Shown in pieces: positions 707 through 28,460 of a stretch of 64,000 nt of DNA. The stretch's first letter is position 1, and each line of letters opens with the position of its first letter. The notes beneath the pieces were generated by a model. That model did no database searches, was not told the DNA's origin, and saw only the letters and a list, made by a program, of their open reading frames with translations. The translations under genes and the position numbers were made by a program. The stretch lies in NCBI GenBank assembly GCA_963718525.1, contig OY970355.1, positions 1,408,001 to 1,472,000 on the forward strand, written 5' to 3'. The stretch is from Candidatus Dormiibacterota bacterium (lineage in GTDB: Bacteria > Chloroflexota > Dormibacteria > Aeolococcales > Aeolococcaceae).

Positions 707-2433
707 GCACTGCGCTGGAGCGTTTGCAATTGGCCGACAGTCCGCTGGCGCCGAAATTCGCGGGTATACTCGGGTCTGCGATGGACGACAAGGTGATTGT
801 CGACCTTCTGGGCCAGGTCGGAAATCTTTTCACGTCGAGTCTGGAGCTGAAGGAGACGATCGACTTCATGCTCAAGGCCGCCGCCGATCTCGTCGACTGC
901 GACGCCGCCACAGTCTTCCTGCTTGAGGAGGACGGCCGCGCCCTGTCCGCGATCGCGACGTACCCATTCACCGACAACCTCGGTCAGGTTGCCCGGTTCG
1001 AGCTCGGTGAGGGCATCGTCGGATGGGCTGCGCAACGCCGCAAACTCGTCTCCGTCGCCGATGCCACCAAGGACCGGCGCTTCAAAACGCTCGGCCTCGC
1101 ATACGCCCCTCGCTCGTGCCTGGTGATGCCACTCGAGTCCCCACAGCGCCTCGTCGGGGCCCTGACACTGGCTCGGCGCGAGGTGCAGCCCTTCACCAGC
1201 ATCGAACAGGCATTGATGCGGATCATCGCGAGCCAGGCGGCAATCAGCATCGACAACGCGAGGCTGTACACGGCGCAGCGGGCACAGCTCGGCGAGATCG
1301 CCACCCAGAAGCGTGAGGTCGAGGTCGCCAATGCGCAGATCGCGGAGATCTCACGGCTGAAGAGCGAGTTCCTGGCCAACATGAGCCATGAGTTGCGCAC
1401 GCCGCTCAACGCCATCCTGGGGTTCAGCGAAATCCTCAAGGACAACCTGGTGGACCTGACGCCGCAGCAGCGTCAGGAGTGCCTCCAGAACATTCACGCA
1501 TCGGGAAAGCACCTGCTCGAGCTGGTCAACGACGTGCTCGATCTGAGCAAGATCGAGGCGGGTCGTATGGAGCTCGCCTACGATCGCTTCGGCGTGCAGG
1601 ATGCGGTCAAAGAGGTCCATAACGTCATTCGCTCCCTGAGCGAGCGGCGCGACATCGACCTCAGCATCGACGTGGTGCCGGCTCATCTCGAGATCCGCGC
1701 CGATAAGAGCAAGTTCAAGCAGGTGCTGTACAACCTGCTGAGCAACGCGATCAAGTTCACGCCGCAGGGCGGCAAGGTCTGGGTATCGGCACGAGCCGAC
1801 AGCGAGAACCTGATCGTCGATGTCGGCGACACCGGCGTCGGCATCCCGGCCGAGCACCACAAGCGGATCTTCGACGAGTTCTATCAGCTCGATCATGCGA
1901 CCACCCGGCAGGTCGAGGGCACCGGCCTCGGACTGTCATTGACCCGCCGGCTCGTGGAGCTCCATGGTGGCGACATCTCGCTCGAGAGTGATCCTGGCCG
2001 GGGCTCCGTCTTCACGTTCCGGCTACCTCTGGCAGGAATTGAGGTGCTCAACGGACACCAGCACAATCGGATCCTGCTCGTCGAGGACAACGCGAGCAAC
2101 CGGGACCTGGCCAAGATGGTGCTGCTCGGCAGTGGGTTCGAGGTCGACATCGCAGTCGATGGTGAGGAGGGGCTCCACAAGGTGCGGTCCAAGGTCTACG
2201 ATCTCGTGCTCATGGACGTGGAGTTGCCTGGCATGGACGGGTTGACTCTCACCCGCATGCTCAAGGCGGATCCCAAGACGTCAGGCGTCCCCGTCGTCGC
2301 ATTGACCGCGAATGCGATGAAGGGCAATGAACAGGAAGCTCTCGCAGCCGGTTGCTCCGGCTACATCACCAAACCAATTGAGGTGGCCAACTTCGTGAAG
2401 CGCATCTCCACATTCATCGAGGTGCCTGTCTGA
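703..2433 (+). CDS. Hybrid sensor histidine kinase (GAF-HisKA-HATPase-REC)
   Basis: GAF (GEGIVGWAA), H-box MSHELRTPLN, N/G boxes NAIKFT, DTGVGI, GTGLGL, C-terminal receiver (LVEDN, LMDVELPGMDG, KP). GTG at 703 overlaps the etfA stop (GTGA). Confidence 0.93.
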   Translation: MSTALERLQLADSPLAPKFAGILGSAMDDKVIVDLLGQVGNLFTSSLELKETIDFMLKAAADLVDCDAATVFLLEEDGRALSAIATYPFTDNLGQVARFELGEGIVGWAAQRRKLVSVADATKDRRFKTLGLAYAPRSCLVMPLESPQRLVGALTLARREVQPFTSIEQALMRIIASQAAISIDNARLYTAQRAQLGEIATQKREVEVANAQIAEISRLKSEFLANMSHELRTPLNAILGFSEILKDNLVDLTPQQRQECLQNIHASGKHLLELVNDVLDLSKIEAGRMELAYDRFGVQDAVKEVHNVIRSLSERRDIDLSIDVVPAHLEIRADKSKFKQVLYNLLSNAIKFTPQGGKVWVSARADSENLIVDVGDTGVGIPAEHHKRIFDEFYQLDHATTRQVEGTGLGLSLTRRLVELHGGDISLESDPGRGSVFTFRLPLAGIEVLNGHQHNRILLVEDNASNRDLAKMVLLGSGFEVDIAVDGEEGLHKVRSKVYDLVLMDVELPGMDGLTLTRMLKADPKTSGVPVVALTANAMKGNEQEALAAGCSGYITKPIEVANFVKRISTFIEVPV

Positions 2434-3131
2434 TGAGCGGGGCAGGGAAGACCATCCTTATCGTCGAGGACGACCCACCGAGTTGCGAGGTCGTGCGCCT
2501 TGCGACCAGCGCGCAGAACCACACGCTCATCGAAGCAGCAACCGGCGTTGAGGGACTCAACCTCGCGCGCGAGCAGAACCCGGACCTGATCATCCTCGAT
2601 GTCAACCTCCCCGGTATGAGCGGACTCGACGTGTGCCGGCGCCTTCGCGCCGAGGGTGCGCGCGTGCCGATCATCATGCTCACCGCGAAGAGCGACACGA
2701 TTGATGTGGTCGTCGGGCTCGAGCTCGGTGCGGACGATTACGTGACCAAGCCATTCGAAGTTCGCGAGCTCATGGCGCGCATCGGAGCGCATCTGCGCCG
2801 CAGCGAGATCTCCGCACAGGAGCAGCCGCGCGACCGCTTCGAATTCCCGGGCCTGACCATCGATCTCGGACGCCGCCAGGTCTTCCGCGATGGTGAGGAA
2901 GTGATGCTCACGCTGACCGAGTTCAACCTCCTCGCGCTGCTCGCGTCGCGTCCTGGTCAGGTCATGAGCCGTGGTGAGCTGCTGCGACGCGTCTGGGGCT
3001 ACGAGGTCGAGATCGAGACCCGCACCGTCGACGCGCACGTCTACCGTCTGCGTCGCAAAATCGAGCCCGACGCGGAGAAGCCGACGTACATCCACTCGGT
3101 GCCTGGGATCGGGTACCGGTTCTCCGGGTGA
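2433..3131 (+). CDS. OmpR/PhoB-family response regulator
   Basis: REC (IVEDD, ILDVNLPG, GADDYVTKPF) plus wHTH (LTLTEFNLL, RTVDAHVYRLRRKIE, GIGYRF). TGATG overlap with the kinase. Confidence 0.95.
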   Translation: MSGAGKTILIVEDDPPSCEVVRLATSAQNHTLIEAATGVEGLNLAREQNPDLIILDVNLPGMSGLDVCRRLRAEGARVPIIMLTAKSDTIDVVVGLELGADDYVTKPFEVRELMARIGAHLRRSEISAQEQPRDRFEFPGLTIDLGRRQVFRDGEEVMLTLTEFNLLALLASRPGQVMSRGELLRRVWGYEVEIETRTVDAHVYRLRRKIEPDAEKPTYIHSVPGIGYRFSG

Positions 3132-3158
3132 GGCTTCGCTGAGGACACCTCAGCGCGG

Positions 3159-3279
3159 AAGGAGGGGAGATCGTCCGGGCCGCTGCTCAGCTTGCCCGCT
3201 CGCTCGTTCGCGCAAGTAAATTTTCGCGCTCTCTCGCTCGCTCACAAATTCGCTGCGGCCCGGACGATCTCCCCTCCTT
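3159..3279 (-). repeat. Palindromic element copy 1 (perfect 25-bp terminal inverted repeat around a conserved core)
   Basis: 3159-3183 is the exact reverse complement of 3255-3279. The reverse complement of 3184-3255 matches 3983-4054 at 61/72 positions without gaps. Confidence 0.9.
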
Positions 3280-3324
3280 AGAGTGCGTTGTGCCGTCGCT
3301 CCGCGGCGTCGCTAGGATCTGGGT

Positions 3325-3840
3325 GTGCGGCAGGTCGAGAGCAAGTTTCGGTGGAGTGACCACGAGGTTGTGCTTGCGCGCGCCCTCGAAGCCGGAGCCA
3401 GCGACGAGGGTCTCCTCCTGCAGCATGACCAGTTCTACGGTGTGTCGACGGGTCGGCTGAAGCTTCGGACCATTGCGGGCGCAGGCGGGGAGTTGATTGC
3501 GTATGACCGCGAGGACATTGCTGCGGCCCGGGCGTCTGACTACGGACTGTTCTCAACCGGTGATGCTGAGCTGCTTGATGAGGTGCTCGGACGGGCACTC
3601 GTGAGAACGGGGTCGCTAGAGAAGACGCGTCACCTGCTCATCCTTCGCAACACGCGCATCCACCTCGACGACGTCGTCGGCTTCGGCCGTTTCGTCGAGC
3701 TGGAGACGGCGATTCATGATCAGTCAGAGACCGACGCAGCTACCGAACATGACGACGTGATCGCCTTGCTCGGCCTCCGTGACGCGGAGCCAATCGCGGT
3801 CGGGTACATAGACCTGGACAAGGTCAACCGGGCCTCCTAA
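3325..3840 (+). CDS. CYTH domain protein (class IV adenylate cyclase/triphosphate tunnel family)
   Basis: N-terminal (Q)VESK, QHDQFY, RLKLR, KTR, RIHLDDV, FVELE, C-terminal GYIDL. Confidence 0.85.
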   Translation: MRQVESKFRWSDHEVVLARALEAGASDEGLLLQHDQFYGVSTGRLKLRTIAGAGGELIAYDREDIAAARASDYGLFSTGDAELLDEVLGRALVRTGSLEKTRHLLILRNTRIHLDDVVGFGRFVELETAIHDQSETDAATEHDDVIALLGLRDAEPIAVGYIDLDKVNRAS

Positions 3841-3959
3841 GCCGCGCACCGACCGGGCAAGTCACTCCGCGGCCTCTAGCGTTGGACCTACTGCTCCGCA
3901 GCGTTGCTCGGCGGCGCTGCGCAGGATTCAGCACAGGGCAAATGGCGCAACAGGTGTAA

Positions 3960-4078
3960 GGCGGGAGGGGGCGGGCGGCGCCCAGCGAATTTGGCAGCTC
4001 CCGAGTGAGCGCGACAATGTGCTTGCGCGAACGAGGGAGCGGCCAAGCTGAGCACGGCGCCGCCCGCCCCCTCCCGCC
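3960..4078 (+). repeat. Palindromic element copy 2 (perfect 23-bp terminal inverted repeat around the same core)
   Basis: 3960-3982 is the exact reverse complement of 4056-4078. Core 3983-4054 is homologous to copy 1 in the opposite orientation. Confidence 0.9.
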
Positions 4079-4103
4079 AAACCACAAGCCGCCCGCTAAG
4101 CCC

Positions 4104-4985
4104 TCAGTAGATGAACCCAACAATGGCCGAGTCAGATGTCGAAATGGTGCGGTAGTCCACGCGCCCCCATCCTCCGCCGTCGGCGCGGTAGTTCATCTCG
4201 GAGATCTCGAAGGTGCCATCGAGATTCACGTGTTCCACGTAGGCGACGTGGCCGACCCAGCCGATGTTGAAGACGACGATGGCTCCCTCGACGGGGACGT
4301 GGCCCTCGGGGCGCTTGCCGCGCGCAGCCCGCCACCAGGCGATGGCATTACCGCTCCAGTTAACGGCGCGACGGGTGGCCACGTAGTACGTGCACTGACC
4401 GAAGGGAAAACCGTCGTGGAGGGGAATCTGCGGAGGAACCGACGGGACGCCGTTCTGCGCGTCCACGAAGTAGGAGGAGATCAGCGACCCCGATGGCGCT
4501 CGGGACAGCGGCACCTGGAGGTAGGAACCGCCCAGCATCGGTGAGTTGCTGCTCAATGCGTTGTAGTCGAGGATCACCGCTGGGTCGAGATGGAGACGGG
4601 CGGCGAACTCGGTGGGGGTCTCGCTGGGACGCACCTCGACCAGCGCACCAGGCCCCGGCGGGATCAGCAATGTGGACCCTGCCCTCGGCGCGACGTAGGG
4701 GGTGAGCTGGTTTCCCCACTGGATCGTCGAGGTGGGGACGTCATAGGCGGCCGAGAGGGTGGCGAGCGTCTGTCCTGACTGGACCACAACAGTCTTCACC
4801 GGCTCGACGGCCAGCGCGGTCACCGCTGTGGCGTTCTCGACCACCGCGTTGATCTGGATGGCGGCGAGGTTGCGAAGCATCGGGGCAGCCGGAACCTGAG
4901 CCGGCCGGGCCACGAGCACGACGAGCACCGCCGCTGTGGCGATGACCCAGAGGTGCCGTATTAACCGATGAACGTGGGTCGCGAT
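4104..4985 (-). CDS. Secreted LysM-CHAP peptidoglycan hydrolase
   Basis: LysM (VQSGQTLATLSAAYDV...NQL). CHAP motifs FPFGQCTYYV, GNAIAW, GHVAYVE, ISEMNY. Start uncertain: GTG 4928, or ATC 4985 after the SD-like GAGGGGAG. Confidence 0.85.
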   Translation of the reverse strand: MATHVHRLIRHLWVIATAAVLVVLVARPAQVPAAPMLRNLAAIQINAVVENATAVTALAVEPVKTVVVQSGQTLATLSAAYDVPTSTIQWGNQLTPYVAPRAGSTLLIPPGPGALVEVRPSETPTEFAARLHLDPAVILDYNALSSNSPMLGGSYLQVPLSRAPSGSLISSYFVDAQNGVPSVPPQIPLHDGFPFGQCTYYVATRRAVNWSGNAIAWWRAARGKRPEGHVPVEGAIVVFNIGWVGHVAYVEHVNLDGTFEISEMNYRADGGGWGRVDYRTISTSDSAIVGFIY

Positions 4986-28386: not shown

Positions 28387-28460
28387 GGGCGGGTAGCTCA
28401 GCCGGTTAGAGCAGGGGGCTCATAACCCCACGGTCCCAGGTTCGAATCCTGGCCCGCCCA
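28387..28460 (+). tRNA. tRNA with CAT anticodon, most likely tRNA-Ile2 (lysidine); elongator Met not excluded
   Basis: Acceptor GGGCGGG/CCCGCCC with A73, D-arm GCTC/GAGC, anticodon loop CTCATAA, T-arm CCAGG-TTCGAAT-CCTGG. CCA not encoded. G1-C72 pair excludes initiator. Confidence 0.92.

Follow-up and report, generated by a model that had tools for sequence, protein, structure and literature searches.

A hairpin repeat apparently confined to one genus of soil Dormibacterota, with an inverted pair of copies framing a variable gene islet

Hairpin pair at the regulator/CHAP locus

The window, that is, the whole stretch of 64,000 nucleotides analysed here (G000:C1:1408001-1472000), belongs to a single-contig genome of 3.34 Mb and 66% G+C from the Dormibacterota, abundant soil bacteria that have not been cultured. 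Two related hairpins lie in it in inverted orientation between a response-regulator gene (2433..3131, plus strand; Response_reg and Trans_reg_C in Pfam) and a LysM-CHAP peptidoglycan hydrolase gene, also identified with Pfam (4104..4928, minus strand), which are the fixed left and right borders of the locus. Between the hairpins is a CYTH-domain gene encoding 171 aa (3325..3840, plus strand; PF01928, E 3.7e-10). A preliminary description of this DNA had assigned the hairpins to an unnamed family, either REP/REPIN-like or a structured RNA, and had suggested that they might form a non-autonomous cassette carrying the CYTH gene.

One strand of the hairpin core contains three tandem G.A/A.G sites and two conserved G.U pairs, and this G.A strand is used below to orient each copy. 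Copy 1, of subfamily 'c' (3159..3279, minus strand), consists of a perfect 25-bp outer stem and a 71-nt core. Its 3' flank, in the G.A-strand reading, fills the space between the regulator stop codon and the stem (3132..3158, minus strand), and its 5' flank (3280..3306, minus strand; ...GGCACAACGCACTCTA on the G.A strand) forms the inner end of the unit. The CYTH gene is followed by a locus-specific spacer of about 100 nt adjoining copy 2 (3845..3937, plus strand) and by the 5' flank of that copy (3938..3959, plus strand; GCAAATGGCGCAACAGGTGTAA). Copy 2, of subfamily 'a' (3960..4078, plus strand), has a perfect 23-bp outer stem and a 73-nt core, and its 3' flank (4079..4103, plus strand; AAACCACAAGCC...) reaches the stop codon of the CHAP gene.

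Both hairpins of the preliminary description were confirmed. A repeat finder reported inverted repeats at 3159-3186/3252-3279 (28 nt, 96%) and 3960-3982/4056-4078 (23 nt, 100%), and matched the two cores to each other in inverted orientation over 79 nt (82%). A script recovered the perfect Watson-Crick stems of 25 bp (copy 1) and 23 bp (copy 2), as well as 60 identical positions out of 71 in an ungapped comparison of the cores, against the 61/72 given previously with slightly different limits; the structure-preserving differences between the copies that had been named are present in the sequence. For all four combinations of strand and copy, the predicted fold was much better than 200 shuffles (z -6.8 to -10.2, with no shuffle as good). 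R1, a covariance model built from 33 copies, scored copy 1 at 129.6 bits on the minus strand and 43.7 on the plus strand, and copy 2 at 146.2 bits on the plus strand and 65.2 on the minus strand.

Variable gene content between the hairpins

The surroundings of the pair are fixed across the genus, with a histidine kinase gene and the response-regulator gene on one side, and the LysM-CHAP hydrolase gene and an asparaginase gene on the other; the response-regulator protein is 99-100% identical across the genus loci. Orthologues of both hairpins occupy the same positions in most species, those of copy 1 being found in many congeners, and about ten different contents were observed between the two orthologous hairpins. 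The CYTH gene stands alone in five genomes (G000, that of the window, G008, G034, G025, and G014), and elsewhere it is accompanied by a 155/162-aa gene (G004 and G033), by a 152-aa gene and a DinB/MST-like gene (G027), by a DinB/MST-like gene alone (G019), or by an ankyrin-repeat gene (G215). Other species carry the same PMT_2 glycosyltransferase gene, 92-93% identical (G026, G006, and G001), a 337-aa gene of no named family (G003), a winged-helix regulator gene with a 219-aa gene of no named family (G020), 138- and 113-aa genes (G035), about 600 nt with no called gene (G005 and G022), or nothing (34-166 nt; G011, G012, and G009).

CYTH was detected in 17 of the 42 genus genomes. It is associated with a single hairpin in two of them, on the regulator side in G015 and on the CHAP side in G029. 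In four of the 17 (G211, G001, G007, and G036; loci L197, L201, L204, and L205), a CYTH homologue, 62-67% identical, is located elsewhere, next to a gene of about 483 aa and free of hairpins. Among the genomes searched, this location and the islet are mutually exclusive, which suggests that the gene has relocated.

A maximum-likelihood tree of the CHAP protein (27 rows) placed CYTH-bearing islets on both deep branches. Sister taxa in this tree also differ: G000 has CYTH and G021 a deletion, G034 and G032 differ likewise, and the PMT_2 clade has the 337-aa islet as its sister. Contents were lost by imprecise deletions, with end points in or at the hairpins. The deletion in G021 starts midway through the regulator-side core and stops where the CHAP-side hairpin ends, and G024 and G036 contain single chimeric elements made of one copy and the 3' end of the other. 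CYTH was probably the ancestral content of the islet, repeatedly deleted, extended, or replaced.

The islet variants are all homologous on the regulator side as far as the inner (5') end of the unit, and no further. Next to CHAP, one species group shares about 100 nt more, the spacer at 3845..3937, which is common to species with CYTH, PMT_2, 337-aa, winged-helix plus 219-aa, or empty islets, and the flanks of the other groups differ. With a junction about 100 nt away from the hairpin, exchange did not always take place at the edge of the element.

The orientation of the pair is not peculiar to this locus. Among 150 matches listed, close pairs (<3 kb) were (-,+) in 14 cases, (-,-) in two, and (+,-) in none. 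Together with two pairs found subsequently, they reduce to five independent loci, all of them (-,+): regulator/CHAP, lpdA/137-aa, DUF6812/~500-aa, L044, and L219, the last of which holds AzlC, AzlD, glyoxalase, and CDF transporter genes. The long variable 5' sides of the units face each other at all five.

On this comparative evidence, both copies have evidently been resident in the regulator/CHAP gap since before the genus diversified, and the pair is best described as long-standing gene-end hairpins framing an accessory-gene hot spot, not as a transposon carrying CYTH. The proposal that the pair brackets the CYTH gene was thus right insofar as the bracketed gene content varies between species, but the pair does not behave as a cassette that moves CYTH around: both hairpins stay at the locus across the genus with some ten contents, and CYTH occurs with one hairpin or, at its other location, with none.

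Structure and covariation of the family

The hairpin measures 119-121 nt and the whole unit about 155-190 nt, the latter being asymmetric, with a longer and more variable flank on the 5' side. In 133 distinct copies, family-wide conservation extends over some 22 nt upstream and some 13 nt downstream of the hairpin; the word CAAC-N5/6-TAAGG, previously noticed in both copies of the window, is present and belongs to this conserved 5' flank. Paralogues within a genome have about 30 nt in common at either side of the hairpin (5' ...AAGGACTACGGCACAACG..TGTAA, 3' CAGCACCACA.AGCGATGTGACTGCGGAGCG), and in G001, G003, and G006, the same stems with their ~30-nt flanks are found at unrelated loci.

Covariation was assessed on a hand-given structure of 43 pairs in 33 copies. 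In the alignment, 90.8% of the cells pair, compared to 38-49% when the partners are slid; double changes affect 26 of the 43 pairs, 211 cells are compensated, and none of 500 shuffles reached any of these measures. The covariance check that had been proposed for the family gave strong compensatory pairing. The 72-nt core is about 90% conserved, whereas the outer arms evolve faster and yet remain paired, the arms and the outer flanks being the least conserved parts of the unit. The outer stems of different copies, which had been described as strongly different in sequence and each perfectly self-complementary, are indeed self-complementary, but they are not unrelated, since they represent homologous subfamilies that diverge faster than the core.

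In 11 of the 33 copies, another tandem G.A takes the place of two Watson-Crick pairs. R1 favours the G.A strand by about 80 bits, a preference that reflects the orientation of the sequence, and nearest-neighbour energies do not clearly favour either strand (for copy 3, -94.7 kcal/mol for the G.A strand and -96.6 kcal/mol for the other). The type of mismatch is a hint that the G.A strand is the one that folds.

Distribution of the family

The genome of the window contains three full copies, the third being located at C1:1272796-1272914. A weak fourth match (C1:1202501-1202601; L040 1501-1601) is a 101-nt hairpin with a 28-bp stem that R1 scores at 43.9 bits; it has retained the lower GCGAAU...GCUGAGCA motif alone, without the apical part, and may represent a related family of shorter hairpins. 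As the preliminary description had proposed, the genome and its relatives were searched with the core. Each of the 36 congeners searched contained matches to the 73-nt core, their number ranging from 1 to 19 or more, and none of 24 genomes of the sister family did. R1, applied with stricter filters, found no copy in 150 other genomes of the phylum, including five from four other genera of the same family. When one genome of each of 185,579 species was scanned with a degenerate core pattern, 115 stretches were retrieved, and 79 of the 80 that were listed bear the title of Candidatus Dormibacter(ae)ota or Dormibacteria metagenome-assembled genomes (MAGs). The remaining listed stretch (L145) is a 2.2-kb contig of a Solirubrobacteraceae-labelled MAG from the same MAG series as Dormibacterota bins, and its copy is probably due to a binning error rather than to transfer.

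No Rfam family matched the element at gathering score; the only matches were to generic long-hairpin microRNA models, with at most 45 bits for thresholds of 60-268. Plasmid and phage collections gave no match, and in the literature on Dormibacterota repeats, no such repeat appeared in the titles or abstracts of the matches listed. Judging from these searches, the repeat is restricted to one genus of soil Dormibacterota and is undescribed in Rfam and in the literature searched. The multi-copy family without a name that had been postulated, with strong compensatory variation, is thereby borne out. In the whole 64-kb window, the sole Rfam match at gathering score is a tRNA gene (28387-28460, plus strand).

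Genomic contexts and dispersal

The contexts of 87 elements, at loci with at least 1.5 kb of flank, were analyzed with gene calls from a simple codon-usage caller trained on the genome of the window, which reproduces the obvious genes of the window. All 87 elements are intergenic, directly between convergent genes in 32 cases and between divergent genes in none, and the copies examined sit after gene ends.

Filled and empty states of the same site were found in different species. In four species, 2-22 nt separate the converging stop codons of the lpdA/137-aa locus, which corresponds to an empty site; in others the distance is 149-452 nt and includes one or two units. Depending on the species, this locus is empty, holds a single unit of either orientation, or holds a pair, which is itself empty or encloses a 244-aa gene. 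At a second site, the distance from a stop codon to the next start codon is 4 nt in G026, and a 200-nt insertion is present in G006. At a third, converging stops are 2-3 nt apart in G011 and G022, and 250-330 nt apart in G006, G026, and G001. The comparison of orthologous sites shows the unit entering gaps of 2-4 nt between neighbouring stops or between stop and start codons. A degenerate duplication of about 10 nt of the end of the upstream gene is seen at two of the three filled/empty sites and none is clear at the third, so a target duplication at the insertions is possible. Converging genes end as little as 2-3 nt apart at L061 (G017; 1495-1498) and L216/L217 (G022 and G011), for lpdA/137-aa and another gene pair; such a distance leaves no space for any terminator between them.

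The unit was found in either orientation at the same site in different species (lpdA locus, 167-aa DUF6812 locus, and L021/L024). In one nested case (L060; G006:C1:128800-133900), a whole unit is inserted in the apical loop of another copy; this nested element is located between a superoxide dismutase gene and parB-parA. Tandem (L053 and L054) and truncated copies are also present.

Between convergent genes, the converging stop is closer on the 3' side of the element in 28 of 32 cases, with medians of 25 nt (3') and 108 nt (5'). This does not constitute an independent rule, because it follows from the short 3' flank and the long 5' flank. An "antisense to neighbouring gene" rule drawn from the first loci was likewise lost when 80 further loci were added, at which the neighbours converge on both sides of the element (25/30 on the 3' side and 21/23 on the 5' side). 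The joined outer flank words, considered as a target or an excision scar, gave only chance-level matches in the genome of the window.

Search for a mobility enzyme

The suggested link with REP/RAYT or IS200/605 systems was not supported. PF01797, which covers the Y1 transposases of IS200/605 and the RAYTs, was not found in the genome of the window or in five copy-rich congeners (G006, G003, G001, G022, and G026), these genomes being 72-91% complete by marker count; the same search was positive in 6 of 14 reference genomes used as controls. Among 75 distinct protein families encoded within at most ~1.3 kb of the elements or between pairs, Pfam and NCBIfam revealed no transposase, integrase, or HUH enzyme, and no recombinase or transposase gene was found inside or adjoining any copy examined. 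No parent insertion sequence was recognized among these 75 neighbouring families, a genome-wide search for one not having been made, and no integrase adjoins the elements, again in their neighbourhood and not in a genome-wide search for IntI.

Interpretation and alternatives

We favour, with a probability of about 0.6, the interpretation that the element is a genus-specific, non-coding, interspersed palindromic repeat of gene-end gaps, and that the pair in the window frames a hypervariable islet and did not transpose the CYTH gene. The element would be a selfish or weakly domesticated repeat, moved in trans by some enzyme, or by recombination or replication template switching. It may fold when single-stranded, in read-through RNA or in transient single-stranded DNA, and thus form a hairpin at the gene end. 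Paired hairpins could make the intervening gap both permissive and unstable: they might insulate the flanking genes, act as break-prone palindromes, and provide portable homology for exchange. Such a gap would account for the turnover of the cargo.

Several observations weigh against this interpretation. No transposition event, enzyme, or clean target duplication was seen, the degenerate ~10-nt duplication being limited to two of three sites, and the copy number is low, with three copies in the genome of the window. Independent insertions do not account for the exclusive (-,+) orientation of the pairs, and in one species group some 100 nt separate the hairpin from the CHAP-side cargo junction. 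The long-kept orthologues, the compensated stems, and the ~90% conserved core would be explained at least equally well by selection for a host function, be it that of an RNA or of a binding site for a protein. We infer that the hairpins cause the variability of the islet from turnover compared at element-bearing gaps only, and the CHAP phylogeny is that of a single gene.

The element could instead be a selected structured RNA rather than a mobile repeat, with the G.A strand transcribed or the hairpin read as part of the 3' untranslated regions of its neighbours, the core with its three tandem G.A sites and two G.U pairs serving as a protein platform for 3'-end stability, termination, or antisense control. 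The covariation, which is strong in the outer stem and also seen in the inner helices, is consistent with this, as are the exchange of two Watson-Crick pairs for a tandem G.A in a third of the copies (11/33), non-canonical oppositions that are all of a kind tolerated by one strand, the persistence of orthologous copies across the genus, positions after gene ends and never between divergent genes, and the retention of only GCGAAU...GCUGAGCA in the shorter relative of the same genome. However, congeners differ in copy number (1 to 19 or more), with many nested, tandem, truncated, or flipped copies among them, relatives have empty orthologous sites, and either orientation is tolerated at the same site; moreover, the energies of copy 3 give no clear preference to the G.A strand, and most subfamilies have no U-tract past the stem. 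We therefore regard a selected RNA as possible but unlikely. The core might alternatively act as an outward promoter, with a -35 element in AATTTGNNN and a -10 element, GACAAT, in the apical loop, from which antisense transcription would enter the adjoining gene through its 3' end. This would account for the strand asymmetry and for the outward-facing pairs, and a consensus scan did detect a sigma-70-like TTGGCA-16-GACAAT at 3991-4018 (plus strand), where 0.1 sites were expected in shuffles. Two bases of the hexamer, A at position 2 and T at position 6, do not vary in any of the 33 copies, CAAT is kept in 78-82 of a second set of 82 copies, the spacing is fixed, and Correia elements provide a precedent for repeats that carry promoters (PMC3184786). 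Nevertheless, every copy has a G as the first base of the hexamer, whereas the -10-like boxes of native tRNA genes are TAnnnT, with T first in 24 of the 25 best matches (the scoring itself favours T). The shorter relative in the genome of the window lacks the motif, and the transcript would include only half of the hairpin, leaving the covariation unaccounted for, which makes a promoter role very improbable.

Two further explanations attribute the exchange of the cargo to the pair itself. The inverted copies could be the recombination sites of a cassette-exchange system in which a genus-specific enzyme reads the folded G.A core and swaps or inverts the DNA between the sites without excising it, resembling engineered recombinase-mediated cassette exchange and, more loosely, integron attC sites. 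The (-,+) arrangement at all five independent pair loci, with no (+,-) pair, argues for such a system, together with the replacement of contents between the same two sites in sister species, the end of regulator-side homology at the inner edge of the unit in every variant, and the location of the extra DNA always on the 5' side of the unit. It is nonetheless doubtful, and less easily sustained than an RNA function: no recombinase gene was found inside or adjoining any pair, the losses are imprecise and not site-specific, the CHAP-side junction is about 100 nt from the site in one species group, the same cargo was not found at two pair loci, and the other locus of CYTH has no hairpins. Alternatively, the hairpins could be the ends of a non-autonomous composite transposon, or a pair of miniature inverted-repeat transposable elements (MITEs), carrying CYTH and moved by a HUH/RAYT-type or other transposase. 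Their inverted orientation is that of terminal inverted repeats, and MITE pairs that straddle and mobilise cargo, such as integron mobilisation units, are on record (PMC3184786). Yet the pair is found at the same locus in all species examined with different cargo, CYTH was found inside a pair only at the regulator/CHAP locus and is hairpin-free elsewhere, G015 and G029 have it with one hairpin, no Y1 transposase was found in six genomes, and the arms, where a transposase would have to bind, are conserved least. This last explanation is largely refuted.

Comparison with known repeats

The interspersed gene-end repeat that we favour, the best supported reading, resembles REP/BIME, ERIC, Correia, and SPRITE elements in general kind and is set apart from them by its conserved centre and variable arms, by the fact that no RAYT was found, and by its low copy number. 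Like REP/BIME and REPIN sequences, it is extragenic, GC-rich, hairpin-forming, non-coding, and lineage-specific, with pairing kept amid sequence drift. REPs are biased to the space between convergent genes, according to PMC3184786, and the positions of the present element, all intergenic and with 32/87 directly between convergent genes, are REP-like. REPINs have conserved REP ends and a variable spacer, occur in tens to hundreds of copies, and flank a cognate single-copy RAYT gene (Bertels and Rainey 2011, PMC3337134). The layout is reversed here, the centre being conserved and the arms variable, with 1 to ~20 copies, a unit about twice as long, and no Y1 transposase in the six genomes searched.

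The median of 25-29 nt to the converging stop corresponds to the position of SPRITE-type terminator-like repeats, a comparison made by description only. Unlike in SPRITEs, however, no U-tract follows the stem in most subfamilies (one has TTAC, on the complementary strand), and the core is conserved, asymmetric, and marked by tandem G.A sites. A consensus scan does not call the elements as terminators, and we found no report of SPRITE pairs framing variable islets. As to ERIC/IRU elements of Enterobacteriaceae, PMC3184786 describes imperfect palindromes of ~127 bp, notes copies in a genome-plasticity region of Xenorhabdus, and attributes terminal inverted repeats and TA target duplications to ERIC-type MITEs. 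The present element shares with them, again by description, its similar size, its imperfect palindromes, the location in intergenic transcribed regions in either orientation, and a copy number that varies between relatives; in contrast, its termini are poorly conserved, target duplication is uncertain, and the phylum is unrelated. It also departs from MITEs in general, in that conserved terminal inverted repeats were not found and conservation is lowest in the arms and outer flanks. Correia elements (CREE) of Neisseria are likewise repeats of ~100-150 nt with inverted ends at gene borders, and the promoter-like match of the core recalls them; they have conserved 26-bp terminal repeats and TA duplications and can carry promoters (PMC3184786), whereas neither of these terminal features was seen here and the promoter reading is weak.

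The present units resemble integron attC sites, which are strand-asymmetric imperfect palindromes bordering exchangeable cargo on one defined side. The attC sites, however, have a conserved base (R''-L''/L'-R') and a variable centre, and they occur in direct orientation in arrays beside an IntI gene, whereas in the present units the centre is conserved and the arms vary, pairs are inverted at 5/5 loci, and no recombinase gene is nearby.

Implications and minor observations

To our knowledge, almost nothing is known of genome dynamics in Dormibacterota. The repeat family provides a clear marker of one genus, with an architecture that is unusual for a bacterial palindromic repeat, as a conserved asymmetric centre is combined with drifting but paired arms and no cognate transposase was found in the genomes searched. 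Where its back-to-back pairs lie, conserved genes also border small hot spots of accessory-gene turnover. If this turnover is caused by the hairpins, they would represent a simple, enzyme-poor route to gene-exchange sites; if a dedicated enzyme exists, it would define a new recombination system, and under cassette exchange each pair would be a docking bay for accessory genes. The family also explains contig breaks and mis-assemblies in these MAGs, and R1 can be used to annotate the repeat.

Finally, the sequences upstream of 47 tRNA genes of the genome of the window were inspected. No TTGACA-like -35 element was seen there, and the best -10-like boxes are TAnnnT, most of which end 6-14 nt before the mature tRNA 5' end. 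These boxes are a hint on promoter architecture in this phylum.

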